Shown here one piece after another: positions 15,434-63,947 of a stretch of 64,000 nucleotides of DNA. This DNA comes from an uncultured Candidatus Saccharibacteria bacterium. Its GTDB lineage: Bacteria > Patescibacteriota > CPR2 > UBA1875 > CAIMLA01. The stretch is taken from NCBI GenBank assembly GCA_964501135.1, contig CAZCRI010000002.1:29644-93643 (forward strand). The letters run 5' to 3'. Made by a program: the position numbers and the translations under genes. Position 1 is the first letter of the stretch; the number at the start of each line of letters is the position of its first letter. The notes beneath the pieces were generated by a model. The model saw nothing but the letters and a program-made list of their open reading frames with translations. It was not told the origin of the DNA and searched no databases.

Positions 15434-16333
15434 TTATTTATTGATAATATATTCGTTATATGTGTTGCCGAGTTTACGACGAGCATGCCTTCTAGAGTAC
15501 TTCCCCACCAATAGATTTCTCATAATGACTGCGATGTCAGTAAAAGAGCTCAAAATTGCCGAACTACCTACCTTTGAGCCTTCTTCATCAATCCACTGTA
15601 CCGGCACCTCGATAATTTTTAGCTTATACTTTTGGGCAATTGAAAGGTACTCCGTATCAAAGCCGAACCCGGGGATGGTCTGTAGAGATGCGAGGAGTTT
15701 TGTAACATCTTGGCGATAAAGTTTAAATCCGCAACGCTGATCGATGTAGCTTTGATTTAGAAAAACCGTGAAGAGAAAATTGCCACCGCGTGATACAAGC
15801 TGCCTAAAACGACCCTGTTTGCCGATAGCTTGATAGTCTTTGCTGTGGCCGAAAACCAAAACCTCAATGATGCTTTTAATGCCATGGAAGACCCCCTTGA
15901 ACCAGTTTGGCTTATATGGATGAGGATCTTTAATATACCTGGAACCCAAAACAATATCGTATTTGTCTACAAATTTTAGTAGTTTATCTATTTCCGTGAT
16001 TGGTGTTGAGTTGTCGGCATCCATGAACATGACGTACTTACCCTTTGCGTCTGCAAAGCCACGTTGAATACCTGCCCCCTTACCTTTTGGTTCGTTGACT
16101 CGGGGTTCTAAATATCTAAAATGTTTGATTTCTTCCGCATATTTCTTTGCAATATCGATAGACTTGTCGGTACTCTTATCGTCACTTAGAATCACTTCGC
16201 AACTAAATTTGGCGTTTCTCGTATATTCCTCGATAACCTTAAGTGTTTTCTCGATTCTCGCCTCTTCATTGAAAAATGAGATGATGATTGAGAGATAGAT
16301 TTCTTCTTCTGCCATAAGGCCTCCTTGATTCAA
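15434..16333 (-). CDS. GT2 polyprenyl-phosphate sugar synthase (GtrB/DPM1-like)
   Basis: 299 aa; GT-A fold motifs (SIIISFFNEE, DDKSTD, DADNS) and C-terminal TM helices. Confidence 0.75.
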   Translation of the reverse strand: MNQGGLMAEEEIYLSIIISFFNEEARIEKTLKVIEEYTRNAKFSCEVILSDDKSTDKSIDIAKKYAEEIKHFRYLEPRVNEPKGKGAGIQRGFADAKGKYVMFMDADNSTPITEIDKLLKFVDKYDIVLGSRYIKDPHPYKPNWFKGVFHGIKSIIEVLVFGHSKDYQAIGKQGRFRQLVSRGGNFLFTVFLNQSYIDQRCGFKLYRQDVTKLLASLQTIPGFGFDTEYLSIAQKYKLKIIEVPVQWIDEEGSKVGSSAILSSFTDIAVIMRNLLVGKYSRRHARRKLGNTYNEYIINK

Positions 16334-25656: not shown

Positions 25657-25855
25657 TTTCTCTCCCTCTCCCTTCTGCCATTTTGACCGAAGCGGAGAAA
25701 TCTTTTTAGTGCCTAGGCACCCTTGTCGACCCAATAAAAAATCTTCGATTTCTCGAAGACACATTGGAATAAAATTCATAAAGATTATGCGTTTTACTCC
25801 CTCGGTAGCGGATTAAGCCCTGTGGGCAGCTACTGTCTCCGGAAATTACCTACGT

Positions 25856-25884
25856 ATTTTAGCAAAATATAGCTGTAAGGTCAA
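25856..25884 (-). promoter_or_regulatory. sigma70-like promoter of rplJ-rplL with ~190-nt structured leader
   Basis: minus strand TTGACC (25884-25879), 17 nt spacer, TAAAAT (25861-25856); leader contains hairpins (TCTTCGA/TCGAAGA, GTGCCTAGGCAC palindrome), candidate L10 autoregulatory leader. Confidence 0.5.
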
Positions 25885-32440: not shown

Positions 32441-32597
32441 TTAATAATCAAAATATCTCTTTCCACTGAAAGAGATAAGGTCGACCTTTCCTATTAGGAC
32501 TTATCGCTCCACTCACGTGGCTAGCATTAGCACCCTACTTGTCTTGGGGTTGCCGGCAGGTCATTGGGCTAGTTCCCTATCTGCGCTCTCGATATAT
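32441..32597 (-). promoter_or_regulatory. SAM-I (S-box) riboswitch with terminator/antiterminator expression platform in the metK leader
   Basis: Minus strand reads AUAUCGAGAG-CGCAGAUAGGGAACUAGCCCAAUGACCUGCCGGCAACC-...-GGGUGCUAAUGC-UAGCCACGUGAGUGG-AGCGAUAAG, matching SAM-I core elements (UAUCGAGAG, AGGGA..GCCC.AUGA, CCGGCAACC, GGUGCUAAU, P1 GAUAAG); downstream CUUAUC antiterminator partner overlaps terminator ATCTCTTTC/GAAAGAGAT (32455-32476) + U-tract, 15 nt before the metK ATG. Confidence 0.7.
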
Positions 32598-32629
32598 TTG
32601 ATTGTACTAAAATTATATAGGCTAACCCC

Positions 32630-58183: not shown

Positions 58184-59284
58184 TTAAAAATCGATTTTCT
58201 TGTATCGAATATAAATACTTTCCAAAAGCCCGACAGAAAGTAGTGTCACTACCACACTAGTACCGCCCGAAGAAAGGAGCGGTAACGGAATACCGGTTAC
58301 GGGCATAATTCCTAGATTCATTCCAATATTAATGAAAATATGAAAGAAAAGAGTGGCGAATATTCCCGTGGCTAAATACATACCAAAGTAATCTCTTGCC
58401 GTTTGGGCGATTCGAAGCGCCCTGTAGAGAATAGTCCCAAAAAGCAGAATTACCGAAAAAGCCCCCACGAATCCCATTTCCTCAGCAAGCGCAGCAAAAA
58501 CAAAGTCAGTATGCTTAAATGGAACAAAATTTAGCTGACTCTGCGGACCATGCCCTAATCCCCGGCCCCAGAATTGGCCTGAACCGATAGCAATCATAGC
58601 CTGGTTTACATTCCAGCCGCTCCCCATTGGATCTGCCGCCGGATTAAGGAAAGTAACAATACGCTGCCGCTGATAGTCGTGCAGCAAAAACTCATAAACT
58701 GGCACCATGGCGATAATACCAAGACCTGCCATCCCGGCCAGGTAGCTCTTCTTGATAGTACTAACAACCATCATTGAAACCCAGATAATGCCAAAAGTCA
58801 TAGCGGTGCCAAGGTCGGGCTGAATCGCCACTAACCCAATCGGGATCCCAATATAGACAATCGATTTAATAATGGTTTTGGGTCGGTTCATCTGTTCCAC
58901 GTGATCTGAAAAGAATTTTGCCATGACAATAATCATGAAAATTTTGGCAAGCTCCGAAGGTTGAAACTGGAAGGTACCAATACTGATCCAGCGCTGCGCC
59001 CCCAACCTTGTACTCCCCAGGAATTGCGTCGCCAACAAAAGACCAATTGTTGACAGATACAGGAACCCAGAGAAATTACGGAAGATTCGATAATCAATTC
59101 GAGCCAAAACAAAGAGACCAACCAACCCGATAATCGCAAAGAAGAGCTGCTGCAAGGCCTCTGAACCGCCGGCAATCGAAAAGGTCGTACTAAAGATGAT
59201 TGCAAAGCTGAATCCCAAAAGTAGTGTTGCTGCAGCGAGCAAAACCCAATCGAAGTTTCGAATAAAACGAGAAAATCTATACAC
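58184..59284 (-). CDS. SEDS family peptidoglycan glycosyltransferase (FtsW/RodA)
   Basis: 366 aa, 10 TM, FtsW/RodA/SpoVE conserved loops. Confidence 0.8.
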   Translation of the reverse strand: MYRFSRFIRNFDWVLLAAATLLLGFSFAIIFSTTFSIAGGSEALQQLFFAIIGLVGLFVLARIDYRIFRNFSGFLYLSTIGLLLATQFLGSTRLGAQRWISIGTFQFQPSELAKIFMIIVMAKFFSDHVEQMNRPKTIIKSIVYIGIPIGLVAIQPDLGTAMTFGIIWVSMMVVSTIKKSYLAGMAGLGIIAMVPVYEFLLHDYQRQRIVTFLNPAADPMGSGWNVNQAMIAIGSGQFWGRGLGHGPQSQLNFVPFKHTDFVFAALAEEMGFVGAFSVILLFGTILYRALRIAQTARDYFGMYLATGIFATLFFHIFINIGMNLGIMPVTGIPLPLLSSGGTSVVVTLLSVGLLESIYIRYKKIDF

Positions 59285-62200
59285 TACACTTTAGAAAGCT
59301 CAAGAGTGAGCTTATGTTCTCCAATCAATACCTCTTCATTATATCCCGAATTTGCCTGAGAGACGAACAGCAACTCCGTAGCTAATGTTTCTTTTTTCAC
59401 ATACTCTAGCCACTTGCCACTAAGTATTGACTGAAACTCTTTTGATATCACCGAAAGTAATATCCTGTCATTTACTTGAAGATTTGCTTTCTTACGTGCA
59501 TCCTGAATTTTACGGACAAGTTCGCGCACTAGGCCTTCCGTGAGAAGCTCATCTTCGATTTCAGTATTTATGAAAACCACCACCTGACCATCACCGTCCA
59601 TAACAAAGGGTTTGTCTGCACTAGCTTTATATGAAAGGGCCGTAAGATTTGACTCTAGCTCGATGTCACCTACCTGAACTTTTCCGCAGCCGTGAAGCTG
59701 ATATTTCCCAGCGGCCAATAAGTCTTTAACCTCCCTGAGACGCGAACCCAACACTGGACCGGCTTCTCTAAAGTTGAGCAAGATTGTATTCTCGTAGGCA
59801 ATACCTGCCACTGATTGTTCTGGATTCACCACTAAATTATGGACATTCAACTCCTCCGTAATGGCAGTTTTGGTCTCTATACTTAGCGCAAGAGCCTGAA
59901 CGTCATAGATATAGGCCACCGAAAGCGGCTGCCGGACATTAATCCCTACTTGTGCTCTTAGTCGTAAGCCTTTCTCGACGGCGGTACGCGCTAGATGCAT
60001 TTCTGCATTTATGGTTAAGTTCACATGTTTTTTATCGGCTTTCGGCCAATCGCAGAGATGGACCGATTCCGGAGCCTTATCTTTTGCCGCCGACATTAGG
60101 TTTCGATAGATTTCATCACTAACAAAAGGCATAAACGGTGACAAGAGTTTCACATACGTGGTAAGAACATGGTATAGGGTCTCATAGGCAGCATTCTTAT
60201 CGCTGTCGTTCTCACTTTTCCAGAAACGCCGACGACTACGGCGAATGTACCAATTCGATAGGTCGTCGACAAAATCTGAAAGTTTACGCACCACTTTCGC
60301 CAAATCATAACCATCAAAAGACTCCGTAATATCTGCGATTAGCTGGTTGAGTTCAGAAACTATCCAAAAATCCATTGGATGTTTTAAGTCCAACTTACCA
60401 GTGGGAACAAATCCGTCTATCTCAGAGTAAGTAACGTAAAAACTATAAGAATTCCACAGGGTTAGGATCACTTTCTTTACTACCTCCTCTACCCCTTTTT
60501 CGGCAAACCTAAAGTCATCGGCATGCACTGCCGGGCTACCCATAAGATAAAATCTCATCGCATCGGCACCGTACTTGTCGACTATCTCCATTGGGTCTGG
60601 ATAATTCCGGAGTTTCTTAGACATTTTCTGGCCCGATTCGGCAAGAATTGTCCCGTTTACAATCACGCTCTGGTAAGAAGATTTATCAAAGAGCGCAGTC
60701 GAAAGGACCAATAATGAGTAAAACCAACCTCTAGTCTGGTCAATTCCTTCGGCAATAAAGTCTGCTGGGAAATCGCGCTCAAATTTATCGTTATTTTCGA
60801 AAGGATAATGGATGCTAGCAAACGGCATGCTGCCCGACTCGAACCAACAATCGAAGACCTCCCCCGAGATTTCCATCTTGCCGCCACAATCGCAAGCCCA
60901 ATTTAGATAATTAATTTTGTGCAAATGTATGTCAGTAACTTCGCTTTTTGACTTATCTGCAAGCTCGGCGATACTACCCACTACTTCTATCTTTTCGCAC
61001 TTGTTACATCTCCAAATTGGCAAAGGTGTTCCCCAAAATCTATTCCTTGAAATACTCCAATCAGGAGCATTCTCAATTAGTTTCTGGAATCTTCCGTGGC
61101 CGATACTGTCTGGCAGCCAATAAATTTCCTTATTGTTTGCGAGCATTTTCTGTTTTAGCTTTTCGACGGCTACAAACCAGCTCGAAACACCCTTGTATAT
61201 AAGAGGGGTGTCACAACGCCAACAGTGAGGATACGAGTGGGTAATCCCCTCCACTCGAAACGCCTTGTCTCCAAGGTCGCGAATTATATTCTCGTTGGTC
61301 TCAAGACTAATCACGCTCTGTCCTGCATAGTCAGCAACTTCAATCGTAAAATTACCCAGGTCGTCAACCGGCATAAAGAAGTCGATTCCGTGTTCCTTGG
61401 CGACCGCATAGTCGGCCTCACCAAAAGCAGGTGCTGTATGGACAATACCTGTTCCGTCCTCTGTAGTAACATGATTTCCATCGATTATTTGAAACGCCTT
61501 GGTAACCTCGGCGTAGCAATCAAAAACCGGCCGATATTTCTTGCCCACAAGGTCATGGCCAAGGAAGGTATCACGAATAGTATATTTACCCAGCTGTTCG
61601 GCATAACTTTCGATACGCTCTGTCGCTAAGATGTAGTTGCCAGTAGGAGTTGCTACTGTCGAATACTCTATCTTTGGTCCAACCGAGAGCGCTAAGTTCC
61701 CCGGCAACGTCCAAGGAGTAGTAGTCCAAGCCAAAAAGTAGGTTCCTGGCTCATCGACAAGCTCAAATTTAACCGTCACGGCCTTGTCTCGCTTGTCTTT
61801 ATACCCTTGACCCACTTCCATATTGGAAAGAGGAGTTGCACAGCGTGGACAATACGGCATCACCTTGTGCCCTTCATAGGCAAGCCCCTTCTTGTGAAGC
61901 TCAGAGAAGGCCCACCAGACGCTTTCCATAAACTCTGGATTCATCGTAAGATAAGCACTCTCCATGTCTGCCCAACGGCCAGTACGGCCAACTATTTTCT
62001 TCCATTCTTCGGCATAGGTAAAAACCTTGGTGCGACAGAGTTCGTTGAACTTATCTATTCCCAACTCTTGGACCTGATCCTTGGTTTTGATATCAAGCTC
62101 TTGTTCTACAATGTTCTCTATTGGCAAACCATGAGTATCCCAACCCCAAATACGTTCCACCCGATAGCCCTGCATCGTTTTGTAGCGCGGAATCACGTCT

Positions 62201-62397
62201 TTTATTGTTCCTGCAAGTAAGTGGCCATAATGAGGCAAACCAGTCGCAAACGGTGGCCCATCATAGAAAGAGAATACCTTGCCAGCAGGCCTTTGCGCCA
62301 CCGATTTCTCAAAGATATTATTATCGTCCCAGAACTTGAGGATCTCCGTCTCTAATTTTGGAAAATTTTGCTTGGGATCTACTTTTTTTGCTGCCAC
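59284..62397 (-). CDS. ileS: isoleucyl-tRNA synthetase
   Basis: HYGH (GLPHYGHLL) and KMSKK motifs, CP1 editing domain, 1037 aa. Confidence 0.9.
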   Translation of the reverse strand: MAAKKVDPKQNFPKLETEILKFWDDNNIFEKSVAQRPAGKVFSFYDGPPFATGLPHYGHLLAGTIKDVIPRYKTMQGYRVERIWGWDTHGLPIENIVEQELDIKTKDQVQELGIDKFNELCRTKVFTYAEEWKKIVGRTGRWADMESAYLTMNPEFMESVWWAFSELHKKGLAYEGHKVMPYCPRCATPLSNMEVGQGYKDKRDKAVTVKFELVDEPGTYFLAWTTTPWTLPGNLALSVGPKIEYSTVATPTGNYILATERIESYAEQLGKYTIRDTFLGHDLVGKKYRPVFDCYAEVTKAFQIIDGNHVTTEDGTGIVHTAPAFGEADYAVAKEHGIDFFMPVDDLGNFTIEVADYAGQSVISLETNENIIRDLGDKAFRVEGITHSYPHCWRCDTPLIYKGVSSWFVAVEKLKQKMLANNKEIYWLPDSIGHGRFQKLIENAPDWSISRNRFWGTPLPIWRCNKCEKIEVVGSIAELADKSKSEVTDIHLHKINYLNWACDCGGKMEISGEVFDCWFESGSMPFASIHYPFENNDKFERDFPADFIAEGIDQTRGWFYSLLVLSTALFDKSSYQSVIVNGTILAESGQKMSKKLRNYPDPMEIVDKYGADAMRFYLMGSPAVHADDFRFAEKGVEEVVKKVILTLWNSYSFYVTYSEIDGFVPTGKLDLKHPMDFWIVSELNQLIADITESFDGYDLAKVVRKLSDFVDDLSNWYIRRSRRRFWKSENDSDKNAAYETLYHVLTTYVKLLSPFMPFVSDEIYRNLMSAAKDKAPESVHLCDWPKADKKHVNLTINAEMHLARTAVEKGLRLRAQVGINVRQPLSVAYIYDVQALALSIETKTAITEELNVHNLVVNPEQSVAGIAYENTILLNFREAGPVLGSRLREVKDLLAAGKYQLHGCGKVQVGDIELESNLTALSYKASADKPFVMDGDGQVVVFINTEIEDELLTEGLVRELVRKIQDARKKANLQVNDRILLSVISKEFQSILSGKWLEYVKKETLATELLFVSQANSGYNEEVLIGEHKLTLELSKV

Positions 62398-62630
62398 TTT
62401 CTACTCCTAAATAACAAAAACCACACTGCCTCAGGTGCCCTCTCGGGCGGTACCAACCTGATTCTGTGTGGATACTTACTTACTGACATTACGCTGTCAC
62501 GGCGCCGAGGTCTAATAAGCTTACGCTGTTCTTCTCGGGGCTCGCGGGTGATAACCGCTCATTCGCCTTGTAAGTATTTTAGTACAAAAAACTACAAAAT
62601 ACCACCAAATTAATGTAAAATACCCAGGCT
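62398..62630 (-). promoter_or_regulatory. candidate T-box riboswitch leader of ileS
   Basis: Minus strand GAAUCAGGUUGGUACCGCC matches T-box consensus AAUUAGGGUGGNACCGCG at 15/18 with invariant UGGNACCGC (N=U, complementary to the A73 discriminator of tRNA-Ile); nested stems (CCACAC/GTGTGG, TCAGG/CCTGA, GCCC/GGGC) followed by TTTTT, then AGGAGT SD and ATG. Confidence 0.45.
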
Positions 62631-63947
62631 ATGGAAACAAAACTCAACAAAAACGAAGTCTATACAACCGTAATCGAAAAGATAGTCCCCGAAGGAAAGT
62701 CACTTACCCACATTGAGGGTAAGGTTATCTTCGTGAACGGAGGGTTTCCTGGAGAAACGGTCAAAATTCAGATTTACAAAAACAAGAAAGATTACTCTGA
62801 AGCTAGGCTTGTCGAGGTCGTTACACCTTCAAAAATCCGAATTACTCCACGTGAAGAACATTATTTGATTTGTTCGCCTTGGCAAGCAATACCTTACGAG
62901 CAGCAAATAATCTATAAGCGCCAAATTCTCGAGGAAGCCTTTGCGGCCAATGCAGATACCAAGGTTGTTTTAGATGAATTTTACCAGTCAGATGCCCAAT
63001 ATGGTTACCGGACTAAACTTGAGTTTAGCTTTACCGAAGACCCTAACGGCAAGATTGCCCTTGCTTTTCACAAACGTGGAGTTAATAACGAATATGAAAT
63101 CATAAATGGCTGCGATCTAGGGTCCGAAAAAATGAATCTGGCGGCGCAGAAGATTACCGAGCTACTGAATACCACACCAGGTGTTGTTGCTAAAGGGCTA
63201 AAAAGTCTTGTCATACGTGAGAGCAAGACCACTGGAAAGATTATCGCTGTTCTCTACTACAAATTTAAAGAGTTCCAAATTGGAATCACCCTTGCAGACC
63301 TAGAAGGATATGTAGATGGTCTATTCATTGCCTACTCAACTATTAAGTCGCCGATGTCCGTAATAACTGAGCTAAAACATGCTGAAGGCGATGAATATCT
63401 TGAAGAAAAAGTACTCAATGCTACAATTCGATACCCCTACGACGGTTTCTTTCAAAATAACCTACCGGTATTCGATAAGGCCCTTACGGAAATCTGTGCA
63501 GCTACCTATAACTGCGATAAAATCGTCGAAATCTATAGCGGAACAGGATCAATCGGCTTCAACCTCTCAGATAAAGCAAGAATTCTCGTGGGAATCGAAA
63601 TTGTACCCTCGGCTGTCCGCTATGCAGGAATCAATAAAGAGTTAAACAATGTCACTAATTATTCTGAGATCGAGCTCCCTGACCACAAGATTCAAGCGGA
63701 ACACCTAACCGACACCGACATCTTGGTACTAGACCCACCTAGGGCTGGTGTGCATCCGAAAACAATCACCCATATCCTGAGCGCAAAACCAAAACGAATT
63801 ATCTATCTATCCTGCAACCCAGTAACTCAAGCCCGCGACTATAGGCTACTTTCAGAGAATTATAAACTAGCTCGCGTTTGTGCTTTCGACTTCTATCCAA
63901 ACACCCTACACATGGAATCTTTAGTCGTTCTAGACCTAAAGAAATAA
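62631..63947 (+). CDS. TRAM-domain class I SAM-dependent RNA (uracil-5)-methyltransferase (RlmD/TrmA family)
   Basis: N-terminal TRAM OB-fold; C-terminal MTase with LDPPRAG motif and catalytic Cys region. Confidence 0.65.
   Translation: METKLNKNEVYTTVIEKIVPEGKSLTHIEGKVIFVNGGFPGETVKIQIYKNKKDYSEARLVEVVTPSKIRITPREEHYLICSPWQAIPYEQQIIYKRQILEEAFAANADTKVVLDEFYQSDAQYGYRTKLEFSFTEDPNGKIALAFHKRGVNNEYEIINGCDLGSEKMNLAAQKITELLNTTPGVVAKGLKSLVIRESKTTGKIIAVLYYKFKEFQIGITLADLEGYVDGLFIAYSTIKSPMSVITELKHAEGDEYLEEKVLNATIRYPYDGFFQNNLPVFDKALTEICAATYNCDKIVEIYSGTGSIGFNLSDKARILVGIEIVPSAVRYAGINKELNNVTNYSEIELPDHKIQAEHLTDTDILVLDPPRAGVHPKTITHILSAKPKRIIYLSCNPVTQARDYRLLSENYKLARVCAFDFYPNTLHMESLVVLDLKK

Follow-up and report, generated by a model that had tools for sequence, protein, structure and literature searches.

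A probable tRNA-Ile-specific T-box riboswitch with an ultrashort Stem I in the ileS leader of a Patescibacteria-like genome

Sherwood et al. (2015) are said to have described actinobacterial ileS T-boxes with an ultrashort Stem I. This class, known from Mycobacterium tuberculosis, M. smegmatis and Nocardia farcinica and from the structures 6UFG and 6UFM (PMC7583486, PMC12647780), carries its specifier in the apical loop, and its Stem II compensates for the missing contact with the tRNA elbow (PMC7583486). In transcriptional T-boxes the elbow-binding distal platform has been called essential (PMC7583486), and current reviews hold that switching relies on mutually exclusive helices. Here we analyze the leader of ileS, the gene for isoleucyl-tRNA synthetase (IleRS), in a 64-kb stretch of DNA (contig CAZCRI010000002.1), referred to as the window at its full length. 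The host genome is Patescibacteria-like, of the candidate phyla radiation (CPR), with about 44% GC. The leader region is the minus-strand gap of 233 nt between ileS and a divergent methyltransferase gene (window 62398-62630). Its segment 62416-62566 (-) is probably a tRNA-Ile-specific T-box riboswitch of the minimal, ultrashort-Stem-I class that controls ileS.

T-boxes and the ultrashort ileS class are already known, and the window leader shares many features with the actinobacterial members. These include ileS as the apparent target, an apical-loop specifier in a truncated Stem I without an elbow platform, a purine after the codon, a putative K-turn (kink-turn) at the base of Stem I, an S-turn-like loop in Stem II, a candidate IIA/B pseudoknot of compact size (21 nt), a linker rich in purines, and helices A1 and A2 on either side of a UGGNACC bulge. 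The window leader differs from them in having no Stem III hairpin, in closing A2 with a G-C rather than a G.U pair, and in a putative output through a hairpin and U-tract rather than a Shine-Dalgarno (SD) sequestrator, with the discriminator nested inside that hairpin. The host, Patescibacteria-like and of about 44% GC, also sets it apart. With the canonical T-boxes represented by Rfam family RF00230, such as B. subtilis tyrS and glyQS, it shares the T-box sequence, the antiterminator shape with a 7-nt bulge, and an intrinsic terminator with a U-tract just 5' of the aminoacyl-tRNA synthetase gene that it would regulate. In contrast to these, it has neither Stem III nor a long Stem I with a specifier side loop, AG bulge and distal platform, and its antiterminator lies within the terminator, so that the two do not compete.

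To place the leader among its relatives, the N-terminal 245 amino acids of IleRS were used as the query for ileS loci. A total of 80 genomic and 80 metagenomic loci were fetched, and 12 further loci were added for the closest full-length IleRS homologues (63-73% identical), giving 172 ileS loci (L-numbered). The nearest genomes are metagenome-assembled genomes labelled Patescibacteria group, Saccharibacteria, Peregrinibacteria and Paceibacterota. The family consists of 21 leaders, the window and 20 others, with a UGGUACC bulge (UGGUAUC in L162) between A1 and A2 helices of differing sequence. UGGU opens the bulge in all 21 leaders, and all 21 present AUC in the 5-9 nt apical loop of a short hairpin, which in the 20 others is located 94-227 nt upstream of the bulge. 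In 13 of the 21, the window counted, Stem I and the bulge are 101-108 nt apart.

When RF00230 was applied at a permissive threshold, eight relatives aligned end to end with scores of 19-50 bits, and none reached the gathering score of 93. In these alignments, 70-72 distal Stem I positions are replaced by 4-6 nt, as is characteristic of leaders with an ultrashort Stem I. A covariance model, R1, was built from 10 aligned compact relatives, leaving out the window, L001 and L161-L163; its annotated pairs are the K-turn closing pairs, Stem I, the Stem II lower helix, A1 and A2. R1 matches the window at 62431-62570 (-) over all 153 model positions, with 67.8 bits and an E-value of about 3.8e-18 (rough, from a shortened calibration), and this is the single significant match in the 64 kb on both strands. 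Over the 172 ileS loci, R1 recovers exactly the 21 leaders earlier found by eye. One further match at 16104-16136 (-), with an E-value of 0.11, covers the S-turn part of Stem II only, lies inside a coding region and was put down to chance; by reading of its translation alone, that region apparently encodes a glycosyltransferase.

In the model-based alignment of 18 leaders, 95.9% of the cells are paired, compared with 68.4% after shuffling and 29-43% with slid partners, figures to be read with the caveat that the alignment was fitted to the structure. Double changes occur at 18 of the 20 pairs. Over 152 nt, the leader core shares 96.7% identity with its counterpart in L001, against 72.8% for the first 1200 nt of ileS, and because of this difference the leader RNA appears to be under stronger constraint than the coding sequence. 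All five differences between the two cores fall within the apical hairpin of Stem II. The earlier note on this DNA, made from the sequence alone, had suggested that this could be an atypical T-box, akin to the short ileS type of Actinobacteria; the ultrashort-Stem-I architecture, the covarying A1 and A2 helices and the R1 match bear this out.

The decoding half of the leader comprises the following features, listed from 5' to 3' on the minus strand.

62559..62566, minus strand: 5' side of the K-turn-like motif, GC (C-stem) then GAAUGA; aligned to the 'gCgaUGA' positions of R1, and relatives fit the same RF00230 positions.
62544..62558, minus strand: ultrashort Stem I, GCGG-UUAUCAC-CCGC (4 bp, 7-nt loop); 4/4 stem pairs with double changes.
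62540..62543, minus strand: 3' side of the K-turn-like motif, GA then GC.
62505..62538, minus strand: Stem II, with lower helix CCGAG/CUCGG and apical hairpin AGC-GUAA-GCU; 5/5 pairs of the lower helix with double changes.
62484..62504, minus strand: putative compact pseudoknot of IIA/B type, 21 nt, H-type, drawn by hand; S1 CGC 62504-02/GCG 62494-92, S2 UGACA 62499-95/UGUCA 62488-84.

The closing pairs of the K-turn-like motif, whose geometry is putative, covary in the family alignment (GC/GC, GAC/GUC, CCC/GGG). The window leader has no long Stem I, and with it lacks the AG bulge and distal loop that form the elbow-binding platform. The putative specifier is AUC at 62552-62550 (-), presented in the loop of GCGG-UUAUCAC-CCGC, where a check of Stem I for a specifier loop did find an Ile codon. 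It is followed by a conserved purine, A at 62549; the base after AUC is a purine in all family leaders except L085. A different Ile codon had been suggested earlier, the AUU within GCUUAUUAGACC (62520-09), which is discarded here, as in every relative the aligned position belongs to the S-turn 3' strand of Stem II (xUAGA).

Within Stem II, an S-turn-like loop sets AAGAA (62533-29) opposite AUUAGAC (62516-10), and the GRAAGAA and xUAGA elements are nearly invariant across the family. The window has U where the bulged G of an S-turn of the GAA/AGUAGA type normally sits, a variant common to L003, L004, L147, L161, L166 and L170; in the described system the change of this bulged G to U cost only 2.4-fold in binding (PMC7583486). 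The IIA/B pseudoknot of the window leader was assigned by hand, and we infer it in part from relatives in which the S2 equivalents differ and can still pair: GAGU/ACUC in L162, GAC/GUC in L163, GACU/AGUC in L003, AAGC/GCUU in L002 and GGC/GCC in L005. A 9-nt direct repeat, ACAGCGUAA, occurs at 62520-62528 and 62489-62497 (-), once in the apical hairpin of Stem II and once in the IIA/B region. L161, L162, L163 and L003 also have AGCGUAA(A) in their IIA/B region; since L001 is without the first copy, the repeat may be coincidental.

The second half of the leader holds the linker, the discriminator and the putative terminator.

62472..62483, minus strand: purine-rich inter-domain linker GUAAGUAAGUAU containing AAGUA; corresponds to the RRRxG preceding canonical Stem III.
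62466..62471, minus strand: 5' strand of the outer helix, CCACAC, in the Stem III slot between AAGUA-U and AGAA; pairs with 62426-21 in minimum-free-energy folds.
62462..62465, minus strand: 5' side of the internal loop, AGAA, holding the AA that precedes A1 in the T-box consensus.
62431..62461, minus strand: discriminator core, with A1 UCAGGU 62461-56/ACCUGA 62436-31, bulge UGGUACC 62455-49, and A2 GCCC-GAGA-GGGC 62448-37.
62421..62430, minus strand: 3' side of the internal loop, GGCA, and 3' strand of the outer helix, GUGUGG (62426-21), the internal loop being 4x4.
62416..62420, minus strand: U-tract, UUUUU, straight after the outer helix; with the nested hairpin it has the form of an intrinsic terminator.
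62397..62408, minus strand: SD AGGAG (62408-04) and GUG start codon (62397-95) of ileS.

The T-box-like sequence GAAUCAGGUUGGUACCGCC at 62464-62446 (-), the nested helices, GUGUGG-UUUUU and the SD, all pointed out by the earlier note, are present on the minus strand. The T-box sequence reads AAUCAGGUUGGUACCGCC here, compared with the consensus AAnUaGGGUGGUACCGCG. The motif alone is not beyond chance, because the 9-mer TGGNACCGC has four copies in the window against 1.19 expected, a number reached in 2 of 100 shuffles. The folding energy of the whole leader is modestly better than that of shuffles (z = -2.2). What lifts the leader above chance is the comparative evidence. Double changes are found at 5/6 pairs of A1 and at 3/3 counted pairs of A2; in L166 and L170, A1 has become UCAGGA/UCCUGA, a compensatory change. 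The A1/bulge/A2 element of the window is predicted at -13.2 kcal/mol on its own. Its A2 closing pair is G-C, and among 16 aligned leaders this pair is GC in 11, AU in two, UA in two and CG in one, with no G.U.

Taken together, these features strongly support binding of tRNA-Ile through AUC and UGGU as the putative contacts. AUC in the apical loop of Stem I, with A as the next base, would read the anticodon GAU; this loop would be buttressed by the K-turn-like motif, the S-turn-like loop of Stem II and the compact IIA/B pseudoknot, and the 3'-ACCA of the tRNA would pair with UGGU of the 7-nt bulge. The discriminator base of bacterial tRNA-Ile is A73, fitting a bulge in which N is U. Of the proposed discriminator-matching UGGU bulge, the U is present in all 21 leaders, and its match to A73 would fit textbook tRNA-Ile.

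Three layouts of the expression platform occur across the family. In the classical layout (L005, L009, L031, L046 and L083), the 5' arm of the terminator is formed by the 3' strands of A2 and A1. In the minimal-overlap layout (L004, L084, L085, L132 and L147), a hairpin and U-tract begin in the last 1-4 nt of A1. These ten CPR relatives share with the window the AUC loop, the S-turn-like loop, the putative pseudoknot and UGGUACC, and most are without Stem III; they differ from it in that the 5' arm of the terminator is the A1/A2 3' strand or its last 1-4 nt, so that canonical competition applies. In the nested layout, found in 10 leaders (the window, L001, L161, L162, L163, L166, L170, L002, L003 and L121), an outer helix and U-tract enclose A1 and A2. 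L094 falls outside all three layouts. In this leader, at L094:690-800, UGAGGUGGUA, from the 5' half of the T-box sequence, matches the complement of UACCACCUCA directly 5' of AUG without a mismatch, and there is no U-tract; it may be a translational variant in which the start region is masked by the 5' rather than the 3' strand of the T-box.

The only terminator-like hairpin in the window leader contains A1 and A2, and no mutually exclusive terminator helix is present. The earlier note had rightly found the partition between terminator and antiterminator non-canonical. The window hairpin is predicted at -25.9 kcal/mol, and the ten nested hairpins range from -20 to -26 kcal/mol, values that are typical for T-box terminators, whose mean in TBDB is -19.5 kcal/mol. 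By itself, A1/A2 is predicted at -10.7 to -14.7 kcal/mol in nested leaders, compared with -6.5 to -9.3 in classical ones, and because of this unusual stability it is probably formed in both states of the nested leaders. The 5' side of the internal loop is kept in nested leaders as (R)GAA, GAU or AAA, and the 3' side is variable.

The outer helix has equivalents in other nested leaders: CCACGU/ACGUGG in L002, CCACU/AGUGG in L003, GCACCA/UGGUGU in L121 and CCACAU/GUGUGG in L162, with compensatory changes in the distant members (the first three of these pairings). A U-rich tail follows it in 10/10 nested leaders. In L121, L162 and L170 the next start codon is 70-140 nt away, and the outer helix is therefore not tied to the SD. 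A test based on the longest helix was uninformative, as 77% of shuffles reach 5 bp with G.U allowed. In an energy test with the 5' flank shuffled, the share of shuffles that match the observed energy is 1-10% for every one of nine nested leaders, and the same test gave typical values in leaders without an outer helix. No conserved alternative partner for CCACAC or GUGUGG was found in the upstream leader, in folds of truncated transcripts, or among pairings of the outer 3' strand with the bulge or the A2 5' strand; the truncated-transcript folds leave CCACAC unpaired. An alternative UACC/GGUG pairing can be drawn in some leaders and was rejected as inconsistent. The promoter and terminator scan is blind to the nested hairpin, its loops being limited to 3-8 nt.

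Three further observations concern what lies downstream of nested T-boxes. In L003:1934-2500, the T-box precedes a small open reading frame (ORF) of the MazG-family pyrophosphohydrolase type (Pfam E 1e-7) upstream of ileS, and in L170:77-800 it precedes a 161-aa ORF without a Pfam match, also upstream of ileS. At L121:426-490, the T-box terminator and ileS are separated by an almost perfect inverted repeat of about 65 nt, which on both strands gives a spurious match to the miRNA family RF03686 (44 bits, where the gathering score is 90).

The output of the window leader is likely to be tRNA-Ile-dependent transcription attenuation at the hairpin followed by U5. This is suggested by the stable nested hairpin (-20 to -26 kcal/mol) with a U-tract in 10/10 nested leaders, three of them without a nearby SD. 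It is also suggested by the textbook overlapping terminators of five CPR relatives and by the SAM (S-adenosylmethionine) riboswitch of the window, which uses a terminator as well. The latter is a SAM-I riboswitch at 32498-32598 (-), with its platform reaching to about 32450 (RF00162, 49.7 bits), upstream of a MetK-like ORF. Its terminator, AUCUCUUUC/GAAAGAGAU with the U-rich AUUUUGAUU behind it, is of the classical kind, and its antiterminator uses the 3' strand of P1; riboswitches in this genome can thus be seen to use intrinsic termination. At gathering scores, the Rfam scan of the window yields this riboswitch, an L10 leader and one tRNA. The ribosomal protein L10 leader, at 25727-25860 (-) (RF00557, 62.8 bits), has a hairpin and then a U-tract at its end.

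Since the A1-bulge-A2 element is nested in the terminator, the switch cannot rest on two mutually exclusive helices. The linker offers a possible way out. In canonical T-boxes, RRRxG is the motif before Stem III (PMC7583486), and an AAGUR-type motif is present in nearly all members of the family. In the window, the Stem III hairpin is absent: only U and CCACAC lie between AAGUA and AGAA, and the partner of CCACAC is 3' of A1. From the end of AAGUR to A1 there are 5 nt in L084, L085, L094, L132 and L147, which have neither Stem III nor an outer helix, compared with 11 nt in 6/10 nested leaders, the window among them, where the extra 6 nt are CCACAC; in the other four this length varies between 5 and about 16 nt. 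The spacer between AAGUR and A1 in L003 is itself the outer-helix strand, CCACU. We rate this spacing (5 versus 11 nt) as the observation most informative for a switch based on the linker.

In such a switch, the regulated step would be the closure of the 6-bp outer helix CCACAC/GUGUGG, whose 5' strand is inserted in the Stem III slot. With uncharged tRNA, the linker purines would dock on the duplex of tRNA end and bulge, CCACAC would be kept from GUGUGG, and the polymerase would read through. With charged tRNA or none, the linker would be free, the outer helix would zip up to the U-tract, and transcription would stop. This scheme is inferred from the anatomy of the leader, by analogy with described T-boxes. 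In single-molecule work on the M. tuberculosis ileS T-box, linker docking was the step distinguishing uncharged from charged tRNA (PMC12647780). That a T-box might transduce the signal of uncharged tRNA without alternative helices, with the 5' strand of the terminator placed in the linker and docking set against terminator closure, is a tentative suggestion that we regard as possible and still rather doubtful.

Several points weigh against a functional T-box of this kind or against the proposed switch. By canonical logic, stabilization of A1/A2 by uncharged tRNA should make the nested hairpin terminate better, not worse, and the escape through linker docking relies on geometry by analogy. Stem III has been reported as indispensable for binding the tRNA 3' end (PMC7583486). 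The outer helix could itself be a Stem III with swapped strands that the ON state requires, in conflict with the linker scheme; this alternative is equally structural and leaves switching unexplained. The G.U at the base of A2 has been described as the main steric sensor of the aminoacyl group (PMC7583486) and is replaced here by a Watson-Crick pair, so that charge sensing is only putative. A tRNA search of the window and of 60 fetched loci turned up no tRNA-Ile gene, so that the GAU anticodon and A73 are presumed here. Concerning the models, the E-values of R1 are rough, with a shortened calibration, and its seed includes L166 and L170, from the same ileS clade as the window, which means that the model is not fully independent. 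RF00230 gave no match in the whole window at the gathering score, nor in 62300-62750 at E<=10, so that the cmsearch proposed by the earlier note came back empty; the lone weak Rfam match in the leader at E<=10 is an L31 leader (E 3.5), judged to be noise. That note had tied refutation to the joint absence of an RF00230 match and of a specifier loop, and only the former is absent.

Among the rival explanations, an unlikely one is a translational T-box as in Actinobacteria, in which uncharged tRNA would keep A1/A2 as an antisequestrator, the 3' strands would otherwise block the SD, and the U-tract would be incidental. The decoding half is indeed of the actinobacterial ultrashort type, and the SD follows closely behind the U-tract, with 7 nt between the U-tract and AGGAG. 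In addition, CACCUGAG, from the 3' side of A2/A1, can pair with UUUAGGAG at -7.4 kcal/mol when the 3' half is folded alone. However, this pairing is absent in L001, L161 and L163 and is far weaker than the nested hairpin (-7.4 against -25.9 kcal/mol), and the SD is mostly unpaired in the predicted ensemble, with unpaired probabilities of 0.67-0.97 per nt. Furthermore, 70-140 nt separate the hairpin and U-tract from the next start codon in L121, L162 and L170, and the U-tract is the sole feature conserved downstream of the outer helix. An SD-sequestering helix was therefore rejected as the platform of the window, the candidate pairing being weak and not conserved.

We consider quite unlikely an inverted T-box, in which uncharged tRNA would stabilize A1/A2 and with it the nested hairpin, giving more termination, or in which only charged tRNA, by shearing A1, would permit read-through. 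It would be the direct outcome of canonical T-box physics acting on the nested structure, and an A1-shearing mechanism has been described (PMC7583486). Such a response would, however, be physiologically perverse for the only ileS gene, as starvation for charged tRNA-Ile would shut off IleRS, and the ordinary terminators of close CPR relatives, whose decoding half is the same, follow the logic of being ON with uncharged tRNA.

Very unlikely is a decayed, non-switching relic, in which the hairpin and U-tract would act as a constitutive attenuator or 5' stabilizer and tRNA binding would be irrelevant. The missing Stem III and A2 G.U, and an antiterminator without competition with the terminator, would fit decay, and about half of the ileS loci closest to that of the window have lost the element. 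The element is absent from L081/L164, L082, L165, L167, L168, L169, L171 and L172 (IleRS 65-75% identical or more), which keep the methyltransferase-ileS-ftsW neighbourhood, with only 76 nt of intergenic sequence in several. Because these close relatives have the same neighbourhood without a T-box, the element appears to have been gained or lost patchily within the ileS clade of the window. Decay is nonetheless hard to reconcile with the 96.7% identity of the leader to that of L001, against 72.8% for coding sequence, and with the retention of AUC, UGGU, the S-turn and the linker motifs in lineages whose IleRS identity is down to about 56-70%, where every helix shows compensatory changes.

Finally, a chance resemblance to a T-box in an ordinary divergent promoter region, for which the four copies of the 9-mer and the missing RF00230 match might speak, is refuted by the R1 score of 67.8 bits, by the covariation of the family and by the same architecture upstream of ileS in 20 other genomes.

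The leader, which we read as a probable T-box riboswitch with termination as its likely output, is set among the following genes and a putative promoter element.

62631-63947, plus strand: gene of the TRAM/tRNA(U5)-methyltransferase family, divergent neighbour of the ileS leader.
62576..62581, minus strand: TAAAAT, -10-like hexamer and putative promoter element as read from the sequence, about 10 nt 5' of the first conserved T-box position.
59284-62397, minus strand: ileS, encoding an IleRS of 1037 aa with a GUG start at 62397-95; Pfam tRNA-synt_1, Anticodon_1 and DUF5915.
58184-59284, minus strand: gene of the ftsW/rodA/SpoVE family, its start overlapped by the ileS stop codon.

The TAAAAT hexamer is also found in L001 and L163, and L002 has TTGACT-N17-TAAAAT; no convincing -35 element was seen for the ileS leader of the window, and a consensus promoter scan found no sigma-70-type site. 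Because of the stop/start overlap, ileS and the ftsW/rodA-family gene are probably co-transcribed. The order of ileS followed by the FtsW/RodA gene is seen in L161-L172 and kept in all close relatives, and because of this conservation the ileS leader probably also controls this cell-division or elongation gene.

In a literature search for T-boxes together with CPR, Patescibacteria or Saccharibacteria, no report was found. The occurrence of the ultrashort class in Patescibacteria-like genomes, the use of intrinsic terminators together with an ultrashort Stem I, the lost Stem III and the nested terminator all appear to be new within the literature searched. The CPR family joins an ultrashort Stem I to intrinsic terminators, and most of its members, including the window, are without Stem III. 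Annotation based on RF00230 misses this class of CPR ileS T-boxes entirely. If the element of the window were only a degenerate relic, the finding would be ordinary. T-boxes are a model system for RNA-RNA recognition in regulation, and the finding would extend them to Patescibacteria. If the reading is true, the window leader, together with its classical CPR relatives, would indicate that a T-box of about 150 nt without elbow platform and Stem III can work co-transcriptionally; if functional, it would represent a smaller working T-box and possibly a new coupling of tRNA charge to termination.

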